In this document: in pieces, positions 5,087 through 60,564 of the stretch
Position numbering within the stretch: the first letter of the stretch is position 1
Layout: each line of letters opens with the position of its first letter
From: a virus
Length of the DNA: 64,000 bases
Virus record (IMG/VR): IMGVR_UViG_3300047445_000186
Location: 129,829-193,828 of that record
Direction: 5' to 3' (one strand)
The notes under the pieces: generated by a model
Database searches by the model: none
Told to the model about the DNA's origin: nothing
Seen by the model: the letters and a program-made list of their open reading frames with translations, nothing else
Translations under genes and position numbers: made by a program

Positions 5087-5427
5087 TGTCCGCTCAGTAC
5101 TACGTCTATCGAAATCTGCGAATTGAGAATACGTTCTCCGTAAGATTTCGTGGACGAGTAGTTGATCGCCTCACTGACTTCGTCGCGCGTAATGTGCGAT
5201 TCCAAGTCAGTGAGGTTGGTCGGCTTCGAGTCCTACGGGAAAGGCAGAAGAATGTTCACGCGTTCGTTCGGGCGCGAGAATACGAGCCTTTCGAATTCAA
5301 TGGATCTGGAATGAAGCAGATCTCATACAACCCATACAGAGCCAGCACGTTCATGTGCGATGGGGAACCAATCATGAAGGCAGACGTCGTTCTCTTTCGT
5401 GGAGGAAAGTGCTACCTAGTAGAATGA
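5086..5427 (+). CDS. hypothetical protein (113 aa)
   Basis: ORF with ATGA overlap to the upstream gene. Confidence 0.4.
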   Translation: MSAQYYVYRNLRIENTFSVRFRGRVVDRLTDFVARNVRFQVSEVGRLRVLRERQKNVHAFVRAREYEPFEFNGSGMKQISYNPYRASTFMCDGEPIMKADVVLFRGGKCYLVE

Positions 5428-6383
5428 AAAACATAATCAAGACATTTGAGCCGAACACGAAGGGGAGAGACTTCGTGATCGGTGATTTGCATGGTGCAAT
5501 CTCTTGCCTGCGCAATCTAATGAAGAATCTGAACTTCGACCCTGCGGTCGATCGGATGTTTTCAGTTGGGGACCTTGTTGATCGTGGTGAAGACAGCTTG
5601 GCCTGCCTTCGTCTCCTTCGCGAGCCGTGGTTCTGTGCTGTTCTGGCGAACCACGAGCAGATGATGTACGAGGCGTTCAACGGTGGTTGGATGGGATCGT
5701 ACTGGTACCAGAACGGCGGTGGGTGGGGGTACAACTCTGCCTTGTTCGCCGATGCACTCAAGAAGCGCGATAGGGACCCCGAGTACCCCCTGCCTGCAAT
5801 GACTGATGAGGACTATGAACTCATTGATCTATTGCCCCTGGTGGAGGAGATGCCATTCCTGATCACGATCAATATGACCGATGGTCGGAAGTTCCACGTG
5901 CTTCATGCTGAGCTGCCGCCAGGTCACATTGGTCTGACGGACTCGGATCTGAGCTCGCCAGGTCGAGTGAAGGAGCTCGCAACGATTCAAGCCGGTGACG
6001 GTGACGCGTTCATGTGGAGTCGGTTCATCTTCGGCCCGTTCAACGGTGCGAATCTGATTGATCAGCGTAACAAGGTCATTCGAACTGTGCAGTTCCGATT
6101 CAAGGGTTCGACAGGTCCGTTCAATGATAAGCTCTCGCACATTATCAGCGGGCACACGATCATGCGCGCTCCGTTCACCCTGTTCGGACAGACGAACATC
6201 GACACGTGCGCGTACGCGACTGGTGACAAGGAACCGCCGAAGTACGCGGCCCTGACATGCGTGGAACTTGGAAGCTGGTCGTTCTATCAGGCAACCCCGA
6301 CCACGTTCAGAACTGTGGAGCCGTTCGTCGTAAATACCGACGTAATCAATTCTCTGAAAGAACCAAATGAAGCTCCTCTCTGA
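5424..6383 (+). CDS. Ser/Thr protein phosphatase (calcineurin-like metallophosphoesterase, lambda PPase type)
   Basis: GDLHG, GDLVDRG and GNHE-like motifs in the order typical of PPP-family phosphoesterases. Start chosen at MKNIIK (ATG 5424) after GGAGGA. Confidence 0.8.
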   Translation: MKNIIKTFEPNTKGRDFVIGDLHGAISCLRNLMKNLNFDPAVDRMFSVGDLVDRGEDSLACLRLLREPWFCAVLANHEQMMYEAFNGGWMGSYWYQNGGGWGYNSALFADALKKRDRDPEYPLPAMTDEDYELIDLLPLVEEMPFLITINMTDGRKFHVLHAELPPGHIGLTDSDLSSPGRVKELATIQAGDGDAFMWSRFIFGPFNGANLIDQRNKVIRTVQFRFKGSTGPFNDKLSHIISGHTIMRAPFTLFGQTNIDTCAYATGDKEPPKYAALTCVELGSWSFYQATPTTFRTVEPFVVNTDVINSLKEPNEAPL

Positions 6384-8407: not shown

Positions 8408-9502
8408 ATGAAAGTTTACTTAGTTGGTGGCGCAGTTCGTGATAAGTTGATGGGACTTCAGCCGAAGGACCGAGATTGGGTTGTGGTTGGCGCCACTGAA
8501 GCCGATGTTCAGAAAATGTTGGCGGATGGTTACACGCAAGTGGGGGCAGACTTTCCGGTCTTCCTCCACCCAGAGACGAATGAAGAGTACGCGCTTGCTC
8601 GCGTTGAACGCAAGAACGGCGTTGGGTACCACGGTTTCACCGTGCAAGCCGATGCATCCGTGACGATCGAAGAAGACCTGGCCAGACGCGATCTGACCGT
8701 GAACTCGATGGCCATGGACGACGATGGCAAGATCATCGATCCTTTCGGGGGTCTCCGGGATTTGCGAAATGGCGTTCTGCGGCACACGACCGAGGCATTC
8801 GCTGAAGATCCTCTTCGCGTTCTTCGCCTTGCTCGCTTCGCTGCTCGACTCCCTGCATGGCGCGTCGACGAAAGCACGAAAGCGCTCTGTTGGAAGCTCG
8901 CGTCTGAAGGTGAGCTGAATCACCTCTCGATCGAACGGATCTGGGCCGAGTTGGAGAAGGGATTCGCCGCGAAGAACCCAGGCCGCATGCTCGAAGTTCT
9001 CGAGCGGACTGGTGCTCTCCTGTTCTGCGACACTCTGTCGGCCGTGTTCGGCCCTGGTCTCGAAGACTCGGCGTTCAAGGTCTTGAACACCTTGGCTGCG
9101 GTGCCCCAGGAGAAACGATTCGCGGCCTGTGTAGGAGCTATCGCTCTTCCAGACAGTGATCTCCCGGGCGCATCGGCACGTGTCCGTGAGTGCCTGAAGA
9201 ACGTGACTGCCCTGAGGAACGCGAAGTTCACGTGCCACGATCTGGCCGAGGTCTTGAAGCGCTCTCGTGCTCTTGGCGAAGGTCCAGCGTTCAGCGACTT
9301 CTTGTCGGCAGTCGTTGCGATCGAGAGTGCTGGAACTCGACTGCCGTTCTCGATGAAGCAGCTCGCCTTGGCCGCGCACATCATGAAGGGCGTGAAAGCG
9401 ATCCAGTTCCCTGGTATCGTCGGGAAAGCTCTCGGTCAGGCGATCGAGAACCAGCGAGTCCAGAACCTCCAACAAGGCTTGAACATCCCGATCAACGTGT
9501 AA
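8408..9502 (+). CDS. cca: CCA-adding tRNA nucleotidyltransferase (class II, head/neck/body; HD region degenerate)
   Basis: MKVYLVGGAVRDKLMGLQPKDRDWVVVG, DFPVFLHPETNEEYALARVERK and RDLTVNSMA are near-identical to the bacterial CCA enzyme catalytic head. The 364-aa length and absence of the His-Asp HD signature suggest no phosphohydrolase activity. Confidence 0.9.
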   Translation: MKVYLVGGAVRDKLMGLQPKDRDWVVVGATEADVQKMLADGYTQVGADFPVFLHPETNEEYALARVERKNGVGYHGFTVQADASVTIEEDLARRDLTVNSMAMDDDGKIIDPFGGLRDLRNGVLRHTTEAFAEDPLRVLRLARFAARLPAWRVDESTKALCWKLASEGELNHLSIERIWAELEKGFAAKNPGRMLEVLERTGALLFCDTLSAVFGPGLEDSAFKVLNTLAAVPQEKRFAACVGAIALPDSDLPGASARVRECLKNVTALRNAKFTCHDLAEVLKRSRALGEGPAFSDFLSAVVAIESAGTRLPFSMKQLALAAHIMKGVKAIQFPGIVGKALGQAIENQRVQNLQQGLNIPINV

Positions 9503-28393: not shown

Positions 28394-29422
28394 ATGGAAC
28401 CGAAACTTCTGACACGCGATGCCTTCCGAGAAGGTGTGTTCGCACGGGACAAGCACAAGTGCGTGTTCTGCAGCGAGCCTGCTCAGGACGCGCATCACAT
28501 TCTCGAGCGCCGTCTTTGGCCTGATGGCGGGTACTACCTCGAGAACGGCGCGTCTGTTTGCGGTGAGCACCACATTCTGTGCGAGCAGACTGTCATTTCG
28601 GTCGAGCAAGTTCGCGATGCATGTGGCATTCGCCAACCGCACGTTCCTCCGCATTTCTACCCAGATCACCAGTACGACAAGTGGGGCAACCCTCTGCTCG
28701 ATGGTGGCAAGCGCGGTCGTGGTGAACTGTTCTTCGACGAGTCAGTCCAGAAGGTCCTTGGCCAAGGTGGCGTGCTCGATCTGTTCACGTTGTACGCGAA
28801 GTACGGACGGACGTTCCATCTGCCATGGTCTCCTGGCATTCACGACGATGACAAGGCGCTGAAGGACTGCACACAGTTCGAAGGTAAGCGCGTGATCATG
28901 TCGCTGAAAGCCGATGGTGAGAACACCACTGGGTACTCGGACGGGCACATTCATGCTCGCTCGATTGACAGCCGAGGCGGTGAAGATCGCGCTTGGGTGA
29001 AGCAATTCCTGTCTGAGAACGTGTGCTACAACTTGCCTGAAGGCTGGCGAATCTGCGGTGAAAATCTGTGGGCCGAGCACTCGATCAAGTACAGCGACTT
29101 GAAATCGTACTTCTACGGCTTCAGCCTGTGGAATGAACGGAACGTCTGCCTCTCGTGGGACGAGACGATCGAGTATTTCGCTCTGTTAAACGTCACTCCA
29201 GTCGACGTGCTCTATGACGGTATCTGGGACGAGGCTGCGATCAGGAAAATCGAGAAGACGCTTGATCTTGAGAAGGTTGAAGGGTACGTGATCCGACTCG
29301 CTGAAGCGTACCCGTACAGCCAATTCAAGAGCTCGATCGCGAAGTTCGTCCGACCCGGGCACGTACAGACATCTAAGCATTGGCGGGCAGGTAGCCGCTT
29401 CACACCGAACAAACTAGCATGA
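28394..29422 (+). CDS. HNH zinc-finger nuclease domain fused to Rnl2-like ATP-dependent RNA ligase
   Basis: N-terminus CVFCSEPAQDAHHILERRLWPDGGYYLENGASVCGEHH is an HNH motif. Then nucleotidyltransferase motif I SLKADGEN, motif IV VEGYVIR and motif V KFVR, as in T4 Rnl2-type ligases. Confidence 0.7.
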   Translation: MEPKLLTRDAFREGVFARDKHKCVFCSEPAQDAHHILERRLWPDGGYYLENGASVCGEHHILCEQTVISVEQVRDACGIRQPHVPPHFYPDHQYDKWGNPLLDGGKRGRGELFFDESVQKVLGQGGVLDLFTLYAKYGRTFHLPWSPGIHDDDKALKDCTQFEGKRVIMSLKADGENTTGYSDGHIHARSIDSRGGEDRAWVKQFLSENVCYNLPEGWRICGENLWAEHSIKYSDLKSYFYGFSLWNERNVCLSWDETIEYFALLNVTPVDVLYDGIWDEAAIRKIEKTLDLEKVEGYVIRLAEAYPYSQFKSSIAKFVRPGHVQTSKHWRAGSRFTPNKLA

Positions 29423-38046: not shown

Positions 38047-38051
38047 AACAT

Positions 38052-38162
38052 GCCGAGATAGCACGATGGTCGTGCACTTTATGTAAGAGCGAGTGTCTAC
38101 GGGAAACACGGCACTTGACAGAAAAGAAACGGATGGTGGTTCAAATCCATCTCTTGGCGCCA
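38052..38162 (+). tRNA. atypical long tRNA-like gene (about 111 nt; type II or intron-containing, identity unresolved)
   Basis: Acceptor GCCGAGA / TCTTGGC, D-arm GCAC-GATGGTC-GTGC, T-arm GGTGG-TTCAAAT-CCATC, encoded CCA. About 39 extra nt lie between the D- and T-arms. Confidence 0.35.
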
Positions 38163-38168
38163 AACAAT

Positions 38169-38323: not shown

Positions 38324-38330
38324 GAACAAT

Positions 38331-38409
38331 AGGGTTGAAATCGAAGTGGCACGAGATACATGGCTTTGACCCATGGTAATATCAGGTTCGAGTCCTGACA
38401 GCCCTGCCA
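38331..38409 (+). tRNA. tRNA-Gln(TTG)
   Basis: Anticodon stem CATGG / CCATG with loop CTTTGAC, T-arm TCAGG-TTCGAGT-CCTGA, CCA. Confidence 0.55.
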
Positions 38410-38414
38410 AACAT

Positions 38415-39062: not shown

Positions 39063-39139
39063 GCCTCTTTAGCTCAACTGGATAGAGCACTGGCCTACGA
39101 AGCCGGGGGTTGCAGGTTCGAATCCTGTGAGAGGCACCA
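39063..39139 (+). tRNA. tRNA-Arg(ACG)
   Basis: Anticodon stem CTGGC / GCCGG with loop CTACGAA, T-loop GGTTCGAATCC, CCA. Confidence 0.6.
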
Positions 39140-39214
39140 GAATATTCCGACCGTCAGTGCAAGGTTATCCTTCTACGATTCCCCCTTGCGCGATCTCTTT
39201 GTCGGACGAAACAT

Positions 39215-39288
39215 AGGTCCTTGGTGTAATGGCAGCATGACGGTCTCCAAAACCGTTCGTGGGGGTTCGAGTCCCTCAGGACCTGCCA
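39215..39288 (+). tRNA. tRNA-Trp(CCA)
   Basis: Acceptor AGGTCCT / AGGACCT, anticodon stem ACGGT / ACCGT with loop CTCCAAA, T-arm GGGGG-TTCGAGT-CCCTC. Confidence 0.6.
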
Positions 39289-39432: not shown

Positions 39433-39588
39433 ATTACGACAGGAGCAAGGCGCCCTCGGGCTTGTGGCTAGCTGTGGAAAGTGACCCTCCACCTCCAACG
39501 TCGTTCCAATCAAAGCTTCGTCGTTCCATTCACACGGGTACGCGACTCCGTTTCTCGCAAGAGGTGCAGGGCGAAGCAACGCAATTAT

Positions 39589-39661
39589 AGGTGAGCCAGC
39601 GGCGCTGGACAAGAGCATCCAAAGCTCGAAGTTGGTAGTTCGACTCTGCCATCGCCTGCCA
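39589..39661 (+). tRNA. atypical tRNA-like gene A of a tandem pair (compact D-arm; anticodon loop ATCCAAA)
   Basis: Leader AATTATAGGTGA shared with the next copy. T-arm GGTAG-TTCGACT-CTGCC, encoded CCA. D-region is only CCAGCGGCGCTGG. Confidence 0.4.
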
Positions 39662-39666
39662 ATTAT

Positions 39667-39738
39667 AGGTGATCCATGGGCCGTGGACATGAGCCTCCAA
39701 AACTCGTTGGGACAGTTCGACTCTGTCATTGCCTGCCA
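39667..39738 (+). tRNA. atypical tRNA-like gene B of the tandem pair (anticodon loop CTCCAAA)
   Basis: Same architecture as copy A: AGGTGAT..., D-region CCATGGGCCGTGG, T-arm GACAG-TTCGACT-CTGTC, CCA. Confidence 0.4.
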
Positions 39739-39747
39739 AAATTTATG

Positions 39748-39983: not shown

Positions 39984-39991
39984 AGAATTAT

Positions 39992-40064
39992 TGGGGTATG
40001 ACATGGACGTTGGCCTGGGCTTTGACCCCGGTGCCGGTCGGTTCGATTCCGACTACCCTTGCCA
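39992..40064 (+). tRNA. tRNA-Gln(TTG)-like (imperfect acceptor)
   Basis: Anticodon stem CTGGG / CCCGG with loop CTTTGAC, T-arm GTCGG-TTCGATT-CCGAC, CCA. Confidence 0.4.
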
Positions 40065-40067
40065 AAC

Positions 40068-49030: not shown

Positions 49031-49076
49031 ACTGCACCCGGCGTCATAGAATTCATTTCTCGACGCTAAATACAAA

Positions 49077-49103
49077 CGCTGCAGAAATGCAGCGCTGCTT
49101 TCG
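49077..49103 (+). terminator. stem-loop CGCTGCA-GAAA-TGCAGCG followed by a CTGCTTTCG terminator-like element
   Basis: Seen directly, 46 nt after the stop at 49030. Confidence 0.5.
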
Positions 49104-49530
49104 AACCGAAGATAATGGGTTATCGGCTAAGTTTCCCACTATCATCTCTTTGTTCGAGCATTTTAGCAGCCTCTTCAACACTTACTTCAATCTCATTCAG
49201 CCGCAGCAAGTTGGTTATCAACTACTACGACCTGGACCGTCCGCCCTGTAGAAACACTAAACTCTCTACTGGGTAACCCGTTGACTCCTCTGGTTATTGG
49301 AGCGCCTCGCCGAGAGGGCAGACTTTTGTCTGAAGATCGGCTGATGTTGCAAGTACAAGGAACTTGATCGGATACCGCAACTTAAATCGCGGTGTAGGCG
49401 GAGCCCATGCTCGAAAGAGATACTCTGCTGAAGTCTCCAACAGCAATTTTTGCTGGATGGGATTGTAGTAAGTGCTGTCACGCGCCTTTGTTCACTGCGC
49501 TAAAGTGAACCGATAATCAGGAGAGAACTC

Positions 49531-51150
49531 ATGAACATGTACACCGACCACGCCGCTTCTCTGAACGCCGTTCAGACTTCCACCCCACAGACGGAAGCAA
49601 TTCCTGGCCGCGAAGCCGAGATGAAGCTGAACAACGCTGGTGGATTCACGTTCACTCTTGATCAGTGGGGCGTCCTCGATCGCTTCATCATGATCGGTTC
49701 CGAGAACGGGAACTACTACGTCGGTCAAAAGGACGTGATGAAGCAATCGTTCGCGAACACCCTGAAGTGTATCGCTGAAGACGGTCTGCGTGCTGTCGCT
49801 CGTGCTCTCGAGTACTCAACCTCTGGTCGCGCTCCGAAGAACGACCCTGCTCTGGTTGTGCTCGCGCTCGCCGCATCGAAGGGAACGCCTGAAGTTCAAT
49901 CCGCTGCTTACGACGCCCTGCCAAAGGTCGCTCGTACCGGTACCCATCTGTTCACGTTCGTCTCGATTCTGAACTCCCTCGGGAAGTGGAACGCCGCTGC
50001 AAAGCGCGGCCTGGCGAAGTGGTACACGAACCGTTCGATCGACAAGCTCGCGATCCAAGTGCTGAAGTACCAGCAGCGCAATGGCTGGTCGCACCGCGAC
50101 GTCCTGCGTCTGGCACACGTGAAGCCGCAGAACGACATCCAGACGAATCTGTTCAAGTACATCACGAAGGGTGGCGACGCTCTCGTGCAAGGCTCGCCGA
50201 TTCCGCAGCTCGTGATCGACTTCGAATTCCTGAAGCGCGCCGAGTCGGCCAAGGATGTCGTTCGTCTGATCGAGTCGAATCCATCGATCGCATGGGAACT
50301 CGTTCCTACGCAATTCCTGAAGGATCCGGACGTGCTGATGGCGCTCCTCCCTTCGATGGGCATGACCGCTGTGATCCGTCAACTGGGTAAGCTCACTGCC
50401 GCTGGCGTGATCAAGCCGATGTCGGAAGGCGAGAAGTTGGTCGTCGCGAAGCTCTCGGATGCCGAAGCAATCAAGCGTGGCCGTGTCCATCCGATCACTA
50501 TCCTCCAAGCCCTGAAGCAGTACCAAGCTGGTCATGGTGAAAAGGGTTCGTTGGTCTGGTCTCCAGTTCAACGCGTCGTGTCGGCCCTGGATGACTCGTT
50601 CTACTCTGCGTTCACGCTTGGCGAGGACAAGAAGGAGAATCACTTCATCGCTTGCGACATCTCCGGCTCCATGACCATGGACAGCGCGAAGGTGATCGGT
50701 TCGCCGAACCTCTTGGCTGGTGAAGTGGCTGCGGTGTTCGCGATGGCGATCGCTCGTACCCAATCGAACTATTTCCTCGCTGGTTTCAAGCAGAACTTGG
50801 AACCACTGAAGATCTCGCCGACGATGCGTCTCGCTGACGCGTTGAACGCAATGCGTGCTATGCACTGGCAAGGCGGCTCGACCGACTGTGCTAAGGCATT
50901 CGAGTACGCGCTCCAGAACGGTATCGCGGTGGACAAGTTCACCGTGATTACCGACAATGAAACGTACGCGGGTGGCCAAGCCCCAGTGCAGGCGCTCAAG
51001 AAGTATCGTGACCGTACTGGTCGCGCTGCGAAGTCGATCGTGATTGCTACCTCGGTATCTGAATTCACGATCGCCGATCCGAAGGACGGTGGTATGTTGG
51101 ACATCGCAGGGTTTGACTCGGCTGCTCCACAGATCATCGCTGATTTCTAA
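49531..51150 (+). CDS. rsr: Ro60/Rsr-like protein (TROVE-type N-terminal region + C-terminal vWA domain with MIDAS)
   Basis: 539 aa. MIDAS DxSGSM (IACDISGSMTMDS) about 385 aa in, then T and D positions as in Ro60. RBS AGGAGAG. The large helical N-terminal domain was not verified. Confidence 0.55.
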   Translation: MNMYTDHAASLNAVQTSTPQTEAIPGREAEMKLNNAGGFTFTLDQWGVLDRFIMIGSENGNYYVGQKDVMKQSFANTLKCIAEDGLRAVARALEYSTSGRAPKNDPALVVLALAASKGTPEVQSAAYDALPKVARTGTHLFTFVSILNSLGKWNAAAKRGLAKWYTNRSIDKLAIQVLKYQQRNGWSHRDVLRLAHVKPQNDIQTNLFKYITKGGDALVQGSPIPQLVIDFEFLKRAESAKDVVRLIESNPSIAWELVPTQFLKDPDVLMALLPSMGMTAVIRQLGKLTAAGVIKPMSEGEKLVVAKLSDAEAIKRGRVHPITILQALKQYQAGHGEKGSLVWSPVQRVVSALDDSFYSAFTLGEDKKENHFIACDISGSMTMDSAKVIGSPNLLAGEVAAVFAMAIARTQSNYFLAGFKQNLEPLKISPTMRLADALNAMRAMHWQGGSTDCAKAFEYALQNGIAVDKFTVITDNETYAGGQAPVQALKKYRDRTGRAAKSIVIATSVSEFTIADPKDGGMLDIAGFDSAAPQIIADF

Positions 51151-55540: not shown

Positions 55541-57499
55541 ATGTCAGCTCTCAAGTCTCTCTCGGCGAAATACGCAGAGAAATTCGCAGCACCGGAAGTC
55601 ATGTCGCTCGAAGCGTACCTGGACCTGTGCAAAACCGAACCTCTGGCATATGCCACCGCCGCAGAGCGGATGGTCGCAGCCATTGGCCAACCTGTTGTGG
55701 TTGACACGTCGGAAGACCCACGTCTCTCGCGCATCCACAGCAACAAGAAGATCCGCACGTACGATGCATTCAAGGAATACTACGGCGGTGAAGATCAGAT
55801 CGAACGTCTCGTTGCGTACTTCCGCAATGCAGCCGCAGGTCTGGAAGAATCGAAGCAGATTCTGTACCTGAAGGGTCCAGTCGGCGGCGGGAAGTCCAGC
55901 CTGGTCGAGCTCCTGAAGGCTCTGATGGAAAAGCACCCGTTCTACGCTCTGTACGATGCGAGCGAAAAGGATGCGGAACTGCGGACCTCGCCAGTGTTCG
56001 AATCGCCGCTCGGTCTGTTCAACAAGCACGACCCCGATCACCAAGCGGTTCTCGCTGACTCGGGCATCCCAGTGGGCTACGCTGGTCAAGCAGTTCTGTC
56101 GGGCTGGGCACTGAAGAAGCTCGAAGAATTCGGCGGCGACATCACGCGTTTCAGCGTCGTGAAGCTCTGGCCGAACAAGGACACGCAAGTCGGCGTGATG
56201 AAGGTCGAGCCGGGCGACGAGAACAACCAAGACGTCTCTGTGCTGGTCGGCAAGACTGATCTGCGGAAGCTCGAGAAGTTCAGCCAGAATCACCCGTACG
56301 CTTACACATACGGTGGTGGTCTGAATCGCACGAACCAAGGCCTGATGGACTTCGCCGAAATGTTCAAGGCGAACATCAAGACGCTGAACCCGTTGCTGAT
56401 GGCTACGCAAGAGCACAACTACAACGGTACCGAAGCGATCCCAGCGATGCCTTACACCGGCATTATCTGCGCGCACAGCAACGAGTCCGAGTGGTTCGCG
56501 TTCAAGAACAACAAGACGAACGAAGCGTTCCTTGACCGTGTGTACATCGTGGACGTGCCGTACTGCCTCCGCGTCGACGAAGAAGTGAAGATCTATCAGA
56601 AGCTGATCGCGGGCTCCTCGCTCTCGAAGGCACCGATGGCTCCGTACACTCTCGAGCTGCTCGCTCAGTGGATGGTTCTGACTCGCCTGAAGGAGCCAGA
56701 GAACTCGACGCTGATGGCGAAGATGAAGGTCTATAACGGCGAGAACGTGAAGGACACGATGCCGAACGCAAAGCCGTACGAAGAGTACCGCGATGCTGCC
56801 GGGAACGACGAAGGTATGAGCGGCCAAAGCACTCGATTCGCGTTCAAGATCCTGTCGCAATCGTTCGATCTGCGCCCTGAAGAACAACAGGCAAACCCTG
56901 TGGATCTGATGTACGTGATCGACGCCGCGGTCAAGAAGGAATCGCTGCCGGAAGAAACCGAGAAGAAGCTCCTGACGCTGATCAAGGATCTGCAACGGAA
57001 GTACTTCGATTTCCTCGAAAAGGAACTGCGCGCTGCCTACCTCGACTCGTTCAACAGCTTCGGCCAGAACATGTTCGATCGGTACTTCCTGTTCGCTGAA
57101 GCCTGGATTGCTGATGAGCAATGCCGCGATCCGGAAACTCATCAGATGATGAACCGCGAGAAGCTGAACGCAGCTCTCGAAGAGACCGAAAAGCCGGCTG
57201 GGATCGTGAATGCCAAGGACTTCCGGAACGAGATCGTGAACTACGTGCTGCGGTACAAGAACAAGCACGACGTCGCTCCTCGCTGGAACGAGTACGAGAA
57301 GATCAAGGTCGTGCTCGAGAAGCGGATGTTCAGCGCAACCGAGAACATCATGCCAGTCGTGTCGTTCGGTCCGAAGGGTGACAAGGAAGCTGAAGAGAAG
57401 CACACGAAGTTCGTCGAGCGCATGATCGAGAACGGGTACAGCGAAAACCAAGTGAAGATCCTGGTGTCCTGGTGGTCGCAAAACAAGAAAGCTGCATAA
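55541..57499 (+). CDS. prkA: PrkA/YeaG-family serine protein kinase (AAA+ N-terminus)
   Basis: AYATAAERM, DPRLSRIHSN and Walker A QILYLKGPVGGGKSSLVELLK are near-identical to E. coli YeaG / B. subtilis PrkA. 652 aa. RBS present. Confidence 0.95.
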   Translation: MSALKSLSAKYAEKFAAPEVMSLEAYLDLCKTEPLAYATAAERMVAAIGQPVVVDTSEDPRLSRIHSNKKIRTYDAFKEYYGGEDQIERLVAYFRNAAAGLEESKQILYLKGPVGGGKSSLVELLKALMEKHPFYALYDASEKDAELRTSPVFESPLGLFNKHDPDHQAVLADSGIPVGYAGQAVLSGWALKKLEEFGGDITRFSVVKLWPNKDTQVGVMKVEPGDENNQDVSVLVGKTDLRKLEKFSQNHPYAYTYGGGLNRTNQGLMDFAEMFKANIKTLNPLLMATQEHNYNGTEAIPAMPYTGIICAHSNESEWFAFKNNKTNEAFLDRVYIVDVPYCLRVDEEVKIYQKLIAGSSLSKAPMAPYTLELLAQWMVLTRLKEPENSTLMAKMKVYNGENVKDTMPNAKPYEEYRDAAGNDEGMSGQSTRFAFKILSQSFDLRPEEQQANPVDLMYVIDAAVKKESLPEETEKKLLTLIKDLQRKYFDFLEKELRAAYLDSFNSFGQNMFDRYFLFAEAWIADEQCRDPETHQMMNREKLNAALEETEKPAGIVNAKDFRNEIVNYVLRYKNKHDVAPRWNEYEKIKVVLEKRMFSATENIMPVVSFGPKGDKEAEEKHTKFVERMIENGYSENQVKILVSWWSQNKKAA

Positions 57500-57576
57500 G
57501 CTAAAGCAGCTCTGAGAGGGTGAAGGCGGAGTGGAGGATATCCCTCCGCCTTCTTTAGTTTCGAACTAGGACAAGT

Positions 57577-58950
57577 ATGGAAAAGCTTCCAGTAGCAACA
57601 TATATTTTCGTGGATCGTCGGAAGACGGGCCGCGGCAAGTCGCTTCCGAATCGTCATCGTCTGCTGCGTCGGATTAAGGACGCGATCCGCGCATCGCAAC
57701 CGCAGGACATCGATGCTGGTGGTGTGAAGGGCGCTGCATCTCCGCAATCGGCATCATCTGGGAACGCCGTGAAGGTCACGCGGAACTCACTGCATGAGCC
57801 GACGTTTCATTACGCGAGCGGTACCGGGAATCACAACATCGTTCTGATCGGAAATGATCAGTGGGAACGTGGTGATGACTTCCCTCTGAGTGATGAAGAC
57901 TCGGGTGCAGGGAACGGCCAAGGCGGACCAGGCGACGATGGTGAAGACGACTTCATCGTGAACATCTCGCGTGATGAGTTCTACAATGTGTTCTTCGAAG
58001 ATTGCGAGCTGCCGAATCTGCAAGAGACGCATGAGAAGGAACTGCCTGAGATGGTTCCAAAGCACGCTGGCTTCCAGAAGGAAGGTAACCCAGCGCAGCT
58101 GAACGTGATTCGCTCGTACAAGAACGCGCTGCCACGCCGTCGTGCGCTGACCACCGAAGCACGTGAACAGCTCGAGGAACTTGAGGCCGAGTACGAGAAG
58201 CTCATGAATGAGCTGGGCTCGCAGTTCACGCTCGCATCGCGCGCTGAAGTGATCCAAGACCGGATGGCCGAGATTGAAGAGCAGATCACTGCACTCCGCA
58301 GTCGGATCAGTGCTGTGCCGTTCTTCGAGAAGCTCGATCTGCGGTACACGAAGAAAGAGAAGGTCATGGTGAAGTCGGCTGACGCCGTGTTCATCATGCT
58401 CATGGACATCTCTGGTTCGATGGACGAGACCAAGAAGCGTCTTGCACGAAAGTTCTTCTCGCTTCAGTACGCGTTCATCAAGCGTAAGCACCCAGGTACG
58501 GACCTCGTGTTCGTGGCGCACACTGAAACGCCTGTTGAAATGCAGGAAGAAGAGTTCTTCACGACCCGTAAGAACGGTGGCACGATCGTTTCGCCAGCGT
58601 ACAAGCTCGTGAATGATATCGTGAAGGCGCGGTACGACGCAACGCAGACGAATCTCTATCTGTCGCAAGCATCTGACGGTGACAACTGGGACGATGACAA
58701 TGCGGAGATCATTCCAGAACTCGAGGACAGTGGCCTGCTCTCAAAGCTCCGTCACATGAGCTACGTTCAGGTCGGTGTTCCGTACGACTACGGCGGCTAC
58801 TCGTTCGGTACCTCGATGTTGACGCTGTGGACGACTCTGACGTCGATCGCGAACACATCGAAGAAGCTCTCGATGGTCAAGATCGCTGATGACACGCAAG
58901 TGTTCGACGCGTTCCACAAGATCTACAAGAAGAGCAATCAGACGAAATGA
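57577..58950 (+). CDS. yeaH: YeaH/YhbH-family protein (DUF444, vWA-like)
   Basis: VFIMLMDISGSMDE, FFTTRKNGGTIVSPAYKL and YLSQASDGDNWDDD are conserved YeaH blocks. 457 aa. Confidence 0.9.
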   Translation: MEKLPVATYIFVDRRKTGRGKSLPNRHRLLRRIKDAIRASQPQDIDAGGVKGAASPQSASSGNAVKVTRNSLHEPTFHYASGTGNHNIVLIGNDQWERGDDFPLSDEDSGAGNGQGGPGDDGEDDFIVNISRDEFYNVFFEDCELPNLQETHEKELPEMVPKHAGFQKEGNPAQLNVIRSYKNALPRRRALTTEAREQLEELEAEYEKLMNELGSQFTLASRAEVIQDRMAEIEEQITALRSRISAVPFFEKLDLRYTKKEKVMVKSADAVFIMLMDISGSMDETKKRLARKFFSLQYAFIKRKHPGTDLVFVAHTETPVEMQEEEFFTTRKNGGTIVSPAYKLVNDIVKARYDATQTNLYLSQASDGDNWDDDNAEIIPELEDSGLLSKLRHMSYVQVGVPYDYGGYSFGTSMLTLWTTLTSIANTSKKLSMVKIADDTQVFDAFHKIYKKSNQTK

Positions 58951-59019
58951 AGTCACAACCCGGTCTTCGCAAGTACCGGGTTGTTTACTGAATATGATAG
59001 ACTGATCATAAGGACTTAA

Positions 59020-60564
59020 ATGGACAAACTCGTCATTGACTCTCGCACCGACTGGACGCCTGAAATCCTGCGCCGTGCTTGGGACGAAATTGCAAAGATC
59101 TCGGTCGAAGAGCTCGAGCTGGTTCCTGGCAAGGACCTGTACCCGAATCAGTTCGAGATCGTTTCGGCCGAGCAGATGCTCGATGCGTACGCCTCGATCG
59201 GTCTGCCAGTGCACTACAATCACTGGAGCTTCGGCAAGGAATTCCTGCAGAACCAGAAGTCGTACGAGAAGGGCCAATCCGGCCTGGCGTACGAAATGGT
59301 CATTAACAGCAATCCTTGCGTGAACCTGTTGATGGAAGAGAACCTTGCGTACATGCAAGTGATGGTCATGGCGCACGCTGGCGTCGGCCATAACGCAGTG
59401 TTCGCGAACAACGTGTACTTCAAGGAGTGGACGGCTGCAGGTTCGATCATCGACTACATGCTGTTCGCACGTGACTACATCCGCCATTGCGAAGAGCGGT
59501 ACGGCGAGCGTGAAGTTGAAGAGGTGCTCGATGCTGCGCACTCCCTCGCATCGCACGGGATTGATAAGTACAAGCGGAAGCATCGTCCGCATCTGAGCGA
59601 AGAGCAACGTCTGAAGAAGCTCATGAGCGCCGATGACCAGCGCCAGCGTGAACTCGACGTGATCATGCTGAAGACGTCGCTGAATCGCGCCGATGAAGAA
59701 GAACTGATGCTCGACGAAGGCGAATCGTTCGAAGACGGCGAAGAGAATCTGCTGTACTTCATCATGAAGAAGTCGCCGAATCTCGAGCGTTGGAAGCGCG
59801 AAGTTATCCGGATCGTGCACAAGATCAATCAGTACTTCTCGCCGCAAGGTCCGACGAAGACTCTGAATGAAGGTTGCGCCACGTTCTGCCACTGGTACAT
59901 CATGAAGCGTCTCGAAGAAAAGGGTATTATCACCCCCGACGCGTACATGGCTTATCTGCACTCGCACAGCGGCGTGGTCTTCCAACCGTCGTACAAGAGC
60001 AAGTACTACAGCGGCCCGAACCCGTACGCCCTTGGGTTCAACATCCTGAAGGACGTGAAGCGGATCTGCGAAGGCGGTGAATGGATCGAGAAGTCTAGTG
60101 GTCGTGAATGGGTCGCTATCACCGACGAAGACCGCGCATGGATGCCACATCTGGTCGGCAAGCGCTGGCAAGACATGATCAAGGAAGCTTCGTTCGAACA
60201 CCGTGATGACTCGTTCATCCAGCAGTACCTGTCGCCGAAGGTCATTCGTGACATGAAGCTCTTCACTGTCGGAATTCGGTACTCGGAAGACGAAGACTAC
60301 AAGCACCCGACTGCTACGGCTACGGTTGACGAGATTCACGATGACCTCGGTTACGCGAACATTCGGACTGCTCTGGCTCGCTCGAAGGAACGCGTGAACT
60401 ACGTCCCGCAGATCGTGGTCGTGGACGCTGATTTGGAAGGTGACCGCACTCTCCATCTGCGGTACGATTCGTACATGGGCCGTGAGCTCGATGAGTCTGA
60501 CGCCGAAGAAGTCGTGCAGTACCTGGACTTCCTCTGGGGTTACCCAGTCAGGCTCGAAGCATGA
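59020..60564 (+). CDS. spoVR: SpoVR/YcgB-family protein
   Basis: GLAYEMVINSNPCVNLLMEENLAYMQVMVMAHAGVGHNAVFANNVYF is a conserved SpoVR/YcgB block. 514 aa. Confidence 0.9.
   Translation: MDKLVIDSRTDWTPEILRRAWDEIAKISVEELELVPGKDLYPNQFEIVSAEQMLDAYASIGLPVHYNHWSFGKEFLQNQKSYEKGQSGLAYEMVINSNPCVNLLMEENLAYMQVMVMAHAGVGHNAVFANNVYFKEWTAAGSIIDYMLFARDYIRHCEERYGEREVEEVLDAAHSLASHGIDKYKRKHRPHLSEEQRLKKLMSADDQRQRELDVIMLKTSLNRADEEELMLDEGESFEDGEENLLYFIMKKSPNLERWKREVIRIVHKINQYFSPQGPTKTLNEGCATFCHWYIMKRLEEKGIITPDAYMAYLHSHSGVVFQPSYKSKYYSGPNPYALGFNILKDVKRICEGGEWIEKSSGREWVAITDEDRAWMPHLVGKRWQDMIKEASFEHRDDSFIQQYLSPKVIRDMKLFTVGIRYSEDEDYKHPTATATVDEIHDDLGYANIRTALARSKERVNYVPQIVVVDADLEGDRTLHLRYDSYMGRELDESDAEEVVQYLDFLWGYPVRLEA

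Follow-up and report, generated by a model that had tools for sequence, protein, structure and literature searches.

In the survey of Chen et al. (2014; PMC4201824), Y RNAs were found no more than 4 kb from rsr, the gene of the Ro60-type protein Rsr, and on its strand, in 254 bacteria and 22 phages. Each of the characterised species had two or more Y RNAs, a long hairpin among them, and in M. smegmatis YrlA, YrlB and rsr come from one precursor. Phages have been known to carry Ro60 genes since 2003, and the structure of a phage Ro60/Yrl complex followed in 2025: the Ro60 of Thermus phage phiLo binds two Yrls encoded upstream of it and forms a complex with the host PNPase in vitro (NAR 2025, PMC12135203; PDB 9KOP, 9L5Y). 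Here we analysed a 64,000-nucleotide (nt) stretch of an uncultured virus (IMG/VR record IMGVR_UViG_3300047445_000186, positions 129,829 to 193,828; hereafter the window), in which an rsr gene is preceded by a 500-nt leader (49031-49530). The window very probably encodes a phage Ro ribonucleoprotein module, made up of Rsr and three genuine cognate Y RNA genes on the same strand, two in the leader (Y-A and Y-B) and one in a tRNA array (Y-C). Phage Ro60/Y-RNA modules are already known, and the window is a new, divergent example; less expected are the presence of three Y RNAs in one phage, a class of ~300 nt with a long basal duplex that is apparently confined to this phage clade, and a copy wedged between tRNAs.

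As judged from its domain content and alignments, the gene at 49531-51150 encodes a full-length, bona fide Ro60/Rsr and not a generic vWA protein, the outcome that had been named as fatal to the sequence-only reading of this locus as a Ro60/Rsr-like TROVE-vWA gene. The product carries both the TROVE (HEAT-repeat) ring and the Ro60-type vWA domain by Pfam (Table 1), as do the full-length bacterial Rsr proteins that accompany YrlA/YrlB or Yrn1/Yrn2 in Salmonella Typhimurium, M. smegmatis and D. radiodurans (Chen et al. 2013, 2014). In a phmmer comparison with PDB sequences it matched D. radiodurans Rsr over its full length, ring included (2nvo, E = 1.4e-98), and Xenopus Ro60 (1yvp, 2.9e-95) and human RO60 (9nen, 8.2e-94) end to end. 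The phiLo protein, in contrast, is distant, with a weak match over a partial region (5.5e-8), which places the protein of the window far nearer to canonical Rsr/Ro60. It also matches the phage family PHROG 850, annotated 'RNA-binding protein' (5.7e-69). The MIDAS (metal-ion-dependent adhesion site; DxSxS, T, D) is complete, and the alignment proposed for its residues bears out their conservation: the DISGSMTMD motif read from the letters occupies residues 376-384, opposite DVSGSMT in D. radiodurans Rsr and DVSASMN in Xenopus Ro60, and the three MIDAS segments correspond to DVSGS / GGTDCA / YTDNET in Rsr and DVSAS / GSTDCA / FTDCET in Xenopus Ro60. From the full-length matches to solved Ro60/Rsr structures we infer a closed ring that would bind Y RNA on its outside and single-stranded RNA in its central hole.

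We defined a Y-RNA signature as CCG-N9-GGUUAUC in the 5' strand plus YUUUG in the 3' strand. The fixed DNA form of the 5' motif, CCG-N9-GGTTATC, occurs three times in the window (39151, 49106 and 49201), always on the + strand, against 0.03 occurrences expected. Across 60 related loci from IMG/VR it has 49 matches in 31 loci, all on the rsr strand and nearly all within 1 kb 5' of rsr, and inspection of these loci showed that the looser form CCG-N(8-10)-GGUUAUC recurs 5' of rsr as well. Each motif faces a 3' YUUUG, after which comes the complement of the bases in front of CCG. In the resulting classical Ro-binding helix, the lower part is closed by the first C of CCG, the second C bulges out, and the G pairs with the last U of YUUUG; after this G-U pair comes a bulge or internal loop on the 3' side, and then an upper helix that ends, in all three RNAs, in the invariant GGUUAUC. 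Y-A, Y-B and Y-C thus have in common a stem joining the 5' and 3' ends, interrupted by a single bulged C and by a bulge or loop in the 3' strand.

This helix closely resembles the Ro60-binding site of metazoan Y RNAs, which has the same bulged C (5' ..C-C-G.. opposite ..YUUG..) and the same geometry (GGUC-C-GA / UUGACC), GGUCCGA being the sequence contacted by Xenopus Ro60 according to Chen et al. The UUAUC is also common to both; it is a loop motif found in vertebrate Y RNAs and in the nematode stem-bulge RNAs (sbRNAs), which are Y-RNA homologs (PMC4726728). Bacterial Y RNAs have CCG(A) in the 5' strand and YUAY after the upper stem, where the window RNAs have UUAUC. The metazoan-type signature (bulged C, YUUG, GGUUAUC) is invariant in these phage RNAs, which argues that UUAUC was part of the ancestral Ro ribonucleoprotein (RNP) and is not eukaryote-specific. 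The DNA replication role with which UUAUC is connected in eukaryotes is unlikely to apply to this phage, and, unlike metazoan and nematode Y RNAs, the window RNAs have no oligo-U/La-binding 3' tail and no RNA polymerase III context.

The three candidate Y RNAs can now be given precise and directly testable coordinates (Table 1). Y-A and Y-B lie 55-437 nt 5' of rsr on the + strand, well within the 4-kb, same-strand range of the bacterial and phage survey; Y-C, on the same strand as well, is 10.3 kb upstream and outside that range. By predicted structure, Y-A (with a 15-nt apical region) and Y-C (with a 61-nt core) correspond to the YrlB/Yrn2-type RNAs, as both fit the description of one long, interrupted hairpin with the Rsr-binding motif and a small apical loop (PMC4201824), and Y-B holds the position of YrlA with a multi-hairpin module of ~215 nt. 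In Y-B the 3' partner strand lies 250 nt from the 5' motif. The two G-U pairs in its stem would be A-C mismatches on the opposite strand, and the stem is therefore specific to the + strand RNA.

Table 1. Coordinates of the rsr gene, the predicted Y RNAs and the neighbouring elements in the window (MFE, minimum free energy; aa, amino acids).
Feature	Position	Strand	Details
rsr, Ro60/Rsr ortholog, 539 aa	49531-51150	+	ATG start; AGGAGA 7 nt 5' (49519-49524)
TROVE ring of rsr product	~aa 34-327, nt 49630-50511	+	Pfam PF05731, 6.4e-27, 95 bits (cut-off 23)
Ro60-type vWA domain of rsr product	aa 372-539, nt 50644-51147	+	Pfam PF25045 vWA_Ro60, 3.7e-47
MIDAS DISGS	aa 376-380, nt 50656-50670	+	T in GGSTDCA (aa 448-454), D in ITDNET (aa 473-478)
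Y-A, predicted short Y RNA	49094-49170	+	YrlB-like 77-nt interrupted hairpin; MFE -22.7 kcal/mol, z -3.0
Y-A basal helix	49094-49099/49165-49170		
Y-A lower helix	49100-49106/49152-49158		
Y-A bulged C	49107		
Y-A G-U/A-U/A-U/G-C helix	49108-49111/49148-49151		
Y-A 3' bulge	49143-49147		5 nt
Y-A upper helix	49112-49119/49135-49142		
Y-A UUAUC	49120-49124		
Y-B, predicted long Y RNA	~49176-49477	+	~300 nt; MFE z -3.75
Y-B lower stem	49179-49201/49452-49474		23 positions: 20 Watson-Crick, 2 G-U, 1 mismatch
Y-B bulged C	49202		
Y-B pairs above the bulge	G49203-U49451, G49206-C49444, C49207-G49443		
Y-B upper helix	49210-49214/49437-49441		GUUGG/CCAAC
Y-B UUAUC	49215-49219		
Y-B 3' motif	49428-49438	+	CUGAAGUCUCC
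Y-B interior			~215 nt, several hairpins
Y-B interior hairpin CAGAC-UUUU-GUCUG	49319-49332		
Y-C, predicted short Y RNA in tRNA array	39140-39214	+	MFE -20.5 kcal/mol, z -2.3
Y-C lower helix	39146-39151/39201-39206		
Y-C bulged C	39152		
Y-C upper helix	39157-39164/39184-39191		
Y-C UUAUC	39165-39169		
GC-rich hairpin CGCUGCA-GAAA-UGCAGCG	49077-49094	+	directly 5' of Y-A; MFE -11.1 kcal/mol, z -5.2
Hairpin GUUCACU-GCGCUAA-AGUGAAC	49490-49510	+	between Y-B 3' end and rsr ribosome binding site; MFE -8.2 kcal/mol, z -3.2
Element upstream of Y-A	49066-49073	+	CTAAATAC; invariant in alignment with L001, L002 and L004

The pairing is conserved across related loci. We aligned 19 short-class homologs (alignment A2), in which the 3' strands had been picked by complementarity of the 8+4 bases beside the bulge, and built a covariance model from them (R1). 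RNAalifold predicted two helices in A2, with compensatory changes at 13 of the 14 pairs. Paired cells made up 86.1% of the alignment versus 59.0% in shuffles, and the covariation score (0.754, versus 0.255 when shuffled) was reached by none of 500 shuffles, with slid controls giving 0.15-0.30. The upper helix taken by itself was 81% paired, with compensatory changes at all 7 pairs. R1 gives Y-A 54.6 bits (E = 3e-14); Y-C, which is absent from the seed alignment, was found only by scanning the whole window with R1 (30.3 bits, E ~1e-6). In the 60 phage loci the model has 48 matches, all on the + strand, and it also matches 5' of the Ro gene in mycobacteriophage Myrna, among the tRNAs of Streptomyces phage Blueeyedbeauty, and beside rsr at 19 sites in bacterial genomes; R1 therefore models a general Y-RNA Ro-binding module. 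One further match in the window, at 55126-55074 on the - strand (17.3 bits), is without GGUUAUC and was treated as chance.

Comparison with known RNA families gave a less uniform picture. At gathering thresholds, a search of the whole window with Rfam finds nothing but tRNAs. In E-value mode, the only match in the 46.5-53.5 kb region is the nematode sbRNA family RF01656 (ceN72-3/ceN74-2) at 49095-49160, which aligns its consensus UCGGUCCGG..UGGGUUAUC...ACUUGACCG with Y-A. The proposal that the leader encodes a Y-RNA-like partner is nonetheless supported: it holds two predicted Ro-binding modules on the rsr strand, backed by motif enrichment, by covariation, by R1 matches and by this sub-threshold sbRNA similarity.

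A number of results weigh against the presence of a Ro RNP module, or against parts of it. The RF01656 match (30.4 bits, E = 2.6e-4 over 500 nt) is below the family's gathering score of 38, and neither Y_RNA (RF00019) nor YrlA (RF02553) matched at E <= 10 even when the leader alone was searched, so that both covariance models suggested beforehand gave a negative result. A tRNA-like module of the YrlA kind, which the sequence-only reading mentioned for some Y RNAs, was not detected in 49031-49530 by RF02553 or RF00005 at E <= 10 or by ARAGORN; likewise the elements of the YrlA tRNA-like domain (a GCGGGuUCGAgaCCCGC-like T-arm, a GUAGCUCA..GGUAGAGC D-arm and the acceptor-like hairpin between them) were not found in the leader. 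The same search does find YrlA, at 43 bits, beside rsr in the related locus L050. Chen et al. reported that each species they studied has a tRNA-like module in one or more of its Y RNAs (PMC4201824), and the window thus differs from the bacterial systems in lacking a detectable T-/D-arm module. It differs also in matching the 5' motif of bacterial YrlA RNAs, GNCGAAN0-1G, only partially (Y-A AACCGAAG, with A for the first G; Y-B GCCGCAG, with CA for AA; Y-C GACCGUCAG), a sequence that is matched in full in relatives such as L050 (GGGCCGAAGG). As to the covariation, picking the 3' strands by complementarity biases the lower helix (first 8 bp) through selection; the upper helix, like the stem extension described below, is independent of that choice. 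A promoter scan found no sigma-70-like promoter in the leader, and a Pfam screen of the window's open reading frames (ORFs) of at least 150 aa found no PNPase or other exoribonuclease, nor RtcB. Finally, the ends, processing and stability of Y-A, Y-B and Y-C are all predicted.

The relative used as a positive control is itself informative. L050, a more distant phage relative whose Rsr is 41% identical to that of the window, has directly 5' of rsr a YrlA-like RNA with clear T- and D-arms (2818-2948; RF02553, 43 bits); the locus also holds a hairpin matching the vertebrate Y_RNA family (2538-2647; RF00019, 31.7 bits) and another three short Y RNAs. The tRNA-like module is therefore kept by some phage lineages and not by others.

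Y-B calls for separate consideration. At ~300 nt it is far above typical Y RNAs, cellular rsr loci giving spans of 63-133 nt with the same heuristic, and its interior matches no Rfam family, large-RNA families included, in an E-value search of the leader. R1 is unable to span the long insert and aligns Y-B wrongly (11.8 bits), for which reason explicit pairing and arm-only alignments were used instead. These features could be expected if Y-B were no Y RNA, its 23-bp inverted repeat being a DNA element (MITE-like, or a recombination site) or an unrelated RNA in which the motif occurs by chance. We find this hardly credible. The chance expectation of the exact motif is that given above for the entire window, and the UUUUG family signature sits on the 3' strand directly opposite the bulged C. 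The same architecture recurs at the same site 5' of rsr in 12 loci with Rsr proteins 53-73% identical, where both the full length of the stem and the GUUGG/CCRAY helix show compensatory changes, and the element is orthologous and syntenic, not dispersed. An inverted repeat acting at the DNA level, such as a MITE, was rejected in view of the G-U pairs of the stem, the synteny and the compensatory changes.

Among the 12 long-class RNAs, the arm-only alignment was 83.6% paired versus 58.1% when shuffled, with a covariation score of 0.732 versus 0.248, and a 15-bp extension of the stem, unused in candidate selection, was 75.6% paired with compensatory changes at all 15 pairs. For the window together with L001, L002 and L004, RNAalifold predicted 61 pairs, 19 of them compensatory, in a common fold with the long basal stem, the two G-C pairs, the GUUGG/CCRAC helix and several interior hairpins. 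The lower stems of the long class span 10-25 bp, versus 5-14 bp in the short class. Its members are 213-338 nt long and have a 3' motif, CUGAAnUnUCC(R)A(Y), in common; they lie 5' of rsr at 476-805 in L001, 2392-2728 in L002 and 2318-2623 in L004, with further loci in L003, L005, L008, L013, L023, L028, L030 and L042. They also share repeated units of a hairpin followed by GUAGG or AUAGG (for example CGAGUUAGAAAACUCG-AUAGGA), and L001 and L002 have three such hairpins spaced by AUAGUUG. These units resemble the junction of the YrlA acceptor hairpin with GUAGCUCA, without the T-/D-arm consensus. Y-B itself has a faint likeness to YrlA of this kind (a hairpin, then GUAGG); T- and D-arms sought by eye in its interior were rejected, as loops such as ACAAGGA misfit the T-loop consensus, and Y-B cannot be filed as YrlA because it has no recognisable tRNA-like module.

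The features of this class, a basal duplex of 10-25 bp, a canonical Ro-binding helix and a multi-hairpin module of ~150-270 nt (~215 in Y-B) in the place where YrlA has its tRNA-like domain, allow a tentative and rather doubtful proposal, namely that Y-B belongs to a distinct 'giant' class of Y RNA, so far seen only in this clade, that could recruit an effector other than PNPase or sponge a host factor, with the copy in the tRNA operon tying Ro RNP assembly to tRNA processing. If the ~300-nt class is real and bound by Rsr, the effector module of Y RNAs would be interchangeable, and phages might recruit a new partner to remodel host RNA decay; otherwise, the locus is a solid annotation rather than a discovery.

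The position of Y-A and Y-B raises a second alternative, in which the leader is only a structured 5' untranslated region (UTR), controlling translation or attenuation or stabilising the mRNA and giving rise to no separate small RNAs, with the Y-like motifs as cis sites of Rsr autoregulation. RNA-binding proteins often autoregulate through a mimic of their RNA ligand. The leader runs straight into rsr, the distance from Y-B to the start codon is only 55 nt, no terminator-like site occurs on the + strand between Y-B and rsr, and a hairpin stands just before the ribosome binding site. However, a third copy of the module, Y-C, lies 10 kb off in the tRNA array, unconnected to the rsr mRNA; in L001, L002 and L004 a separate ORF of ~80-115 aa is found between Y-B and rsr, and in L048 copies of the module occur 3' of rsr. 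Moreover, RNAs in the same arrangement in M. smegmatis are cut from a shared precursor and become stable RNAs bound by Rsr (PMC4201824). A leader acting purely as a 5' UTR is on this evidence quite unlikely, and we retain the interpretation of Y-A and Y-B as genuine Y RNAs.

The additional ORF of these closest relatives, which begins MEKLS..EYEFDVT, lies at ~801-1216 in L001, 2593-2940 in L002 and 2613-2939 in L004. The window lacks it; there, nothing but 55 nt and a hairpin stands between Y-B and the start codon. The order of upstream gene, Y-A, Y-B and rsr is preserved in these three loci.

The leader as a whole is more stably folded than all of 100 dinucleotide shuffles (z -4.4). The three hairpins first singled out in it are all present (49077-49094, 49319-49332 and 49490-49510), and none is a Ro-binding core: the first is just 5' of Y-A, the second is inside Y-B, and the third stands between Y-B and the ribosome binding site. 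The first is not conserved as such in the alignment with L001, L002 and L004; it may mark where transcription of the upstream gene ends, or act in processing or stability. The statement that the leader has no ORF over 60 aa is slightly off: on the + strand the longest ORFs that begin with a start codon have 54 and 53 aa, but the - strand has a mechanical ORF of 71 aa (49266-49481), and an ORF of 84 aa overlaps the 3' end of the leader. The small + strand ORFs (53-54 aa) were rejected as genes, the counterpart in L001 having an unrelated translation. A terminator scan returned nothing useful on the + strand of the leader. The region beyond 51150, proposed as another place to search, yielded no Y RNA 3' of rsr, because the next gene begins 23 nt later.

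The arrangement suggests how the RNAs could be made. As in M. smegmatis, which also has two Y RNAs directly 5' of rsr on the same strand, Y-A and Y-B would be co-transcribed with rsr from a promoter just upstream, and host RNases would excise both from the precursor; with its 23-position duplex, Y-B resembles a substrate of the RNase III type. Y-C would be transcribed with the tRNA array and released by tRNA-processing enzymes cutting 6 nt 5' and 9 nt 3' of its stem, since it fills exactly the gap between tRNA-Arg(acg) (39063-39139) and tRNA-Trp (39215-39288) as called by ARAGORN. By homology with D. radiodurans, with the Salmonella RYPER and with phiLo in vitro, Rsr would bind the bulged helix on its outer surface, with the Y RNA gating the central cavity. 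The apical module of the Y RNA may then tether the ring to a 3'-5' exoribonuclease, assumed to be host-encoded, with PNPase the likeliest candidate, so that RNAs that are structured or misfolded would be threaded and degraded during infection. By analogy with the described systems, PNPase tethering is conceivable as the actual role in this phage, at somewhat less than even chances.

The main functional rival to such tethering is a role in RNA repair or as decoys, tied to the tRNA array, the RNA ligase and the CCA enzyme of the window. The Y RNAs would then chiefly be decoys or sponges, for example against host defences that target RNA or nucleases directed at tRNAs, or would take part in tRNA repair or quality control together with the RNA-repair enzymes of the phage, with no exoribonuclease tether. 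Y-C lies inside the tRNA array, and a Y RNA beside a tRNA recurs in L052, L059 and Blueeyedbeauty; the RNA ligase, CCA/poly(A) enzyme, HAD_SAK_2 protein and metallophosphoesterase of the window parallel the bacterial rsr-yrlBA-rtcBA operon; and a survey of jumbo phages groups TROVE proteins with RNA-repair systems (PMC7824862). Yet neither ARAGORN nor the tRNA and YrlA models of Rfam detected a tRNA-like module in Y-A, Y-B or Y-C, the repair genes are 20-47 kb away and not in an rsr operon, and the sole phage system tested so far assembled with PNPase (PMC12135203). We consider the decoy or repair role unlikely, and favour Y RNAs that would link Rsr to an exoribonuclease.

The Y RNAs next to tRNAs in other phages are at 1921-2005 in L052 (tRNA-Met 2000-2075), 2170-2256 in L059 (tRNA-Met 2248-2320) and 207-297 in Blueeyedbeauty (L062; tRNA-Ile 289-364). 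In the window, ARAGORN finds 20 tRNAs in the array and Rfam 19. Five further segments on the + strand, missed by both and situated in gaps of the array, have a GGTTCGA-type T-arm and a CCA-like end (~38050-38165, 38330-38412, 39580-39652, 39660-39742 and 39990-40065) and are probably atypical or intron-containing tRNAs; the array would then hold ~25 genes, in good agreement with the 24 counted by the sequence-only reading. The RNA-repair-type genes, all on the + strand, encode a HAD_SAK_2 domain (1707-2279), a metallophosphoesterase (5355-6380), a CCA-adding/poly(A) polymerase-family enzyme (8408-9499) and an RNA ligase (28394-29419). These genes are scattered through the window and form no operon with rsr; taken with the tRNA array and rsr, they suggest a broad RNA maintenance toolkit.

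With respect to the described systems, the locus shares with phiLo a phage Ro60 gene with two Y-RNA-like genes directly upstream; the tRNA-array copy and the ~300-nt RNA are not described for phiLo. The actinophages Myrna, ET08 and cluster C phages and the Streptomyces BE-cluster phages, which have YrlA-like RNAs, encode the same protein family (PHROG 850), and the window has in common with Myrna a Y RNA 5' of Ro and with Blueeyedbeauty Y RNAs among tRNAs; they differ in that protein identity is below 40% and DNA similarity is limited to 79 nt. The bacterial systems differ from the window in the length of its second RNA (~300 nt, with a 23-position basal duplex) and in that the window has no rtcBA/rtcR beside rsr; its protein is only ~36-44% identical to the cellular Rsr proteins.

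The window is the auxiliary-gene region of a large uncultured phage. Blastn against 50,697 GenBank phages found no relative at the DNA level, only a 79-nt patch inside rsr, so that the phage has no close relative in culture, and the exact 5' strand of Y-A had no match in IMG/VR. The rsr product matches 358 GenBank phage records, mostly of actinophages annotated 'Ro-like RNA binding protein', all at less than 40% identity. In the 60 related IMG/VR loci, many of them on contigs of 250-440 kb, Rsr is 33-73% identical, and the window falls into a separate clade of uncultured phages (53-73%). Among GTDB genomes, identities above 60% occur on only two contigs of metagenome-assembled genomes (MAGs), one of 2.3 kb that is probably phage and one of 36.6 kb from the bin of an Acinetobacter MAG; for the remaining cellular Rsr proteins, identity is 35-47%. 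The Ro60/Y-RNA partnership is in this way extended to a previously unsampled clade of large environmental phages.

Other genes of the window include a PrkA / DUF444 (YeaH-like) / SpoVR trio, a conserved bacterial stress-response cassette, a few kb 3' of rsr (55541-60561, + strand), as well as a non-specific nuclease, DHFR and other auxiliary genes. The element CTAAATAC upstream of Y-A is a candidate promoter, RNA element, or start or processing signal of this phage. TAAATAC occurs nine times in the window, all on the + strand, versus 1.25 expected (6331, 16999, 22100, 26943, 37396, 45418, 46130, 47307 and 49067, mostly intergenic), and the copy at 49067 is kept 5' of Y-A in L001, L002 and L004. 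The motif may serve as a promoter, terminator or processing element specific to this lineage. In several copies TAAATAC is the loop of a short hairpin, as in CGTCG-TAAATAC-CGACG (6331) and in the terminator-like GGGCTGAGA-TAAATAC-GTCTCAGCCC-TTTTT (47307).

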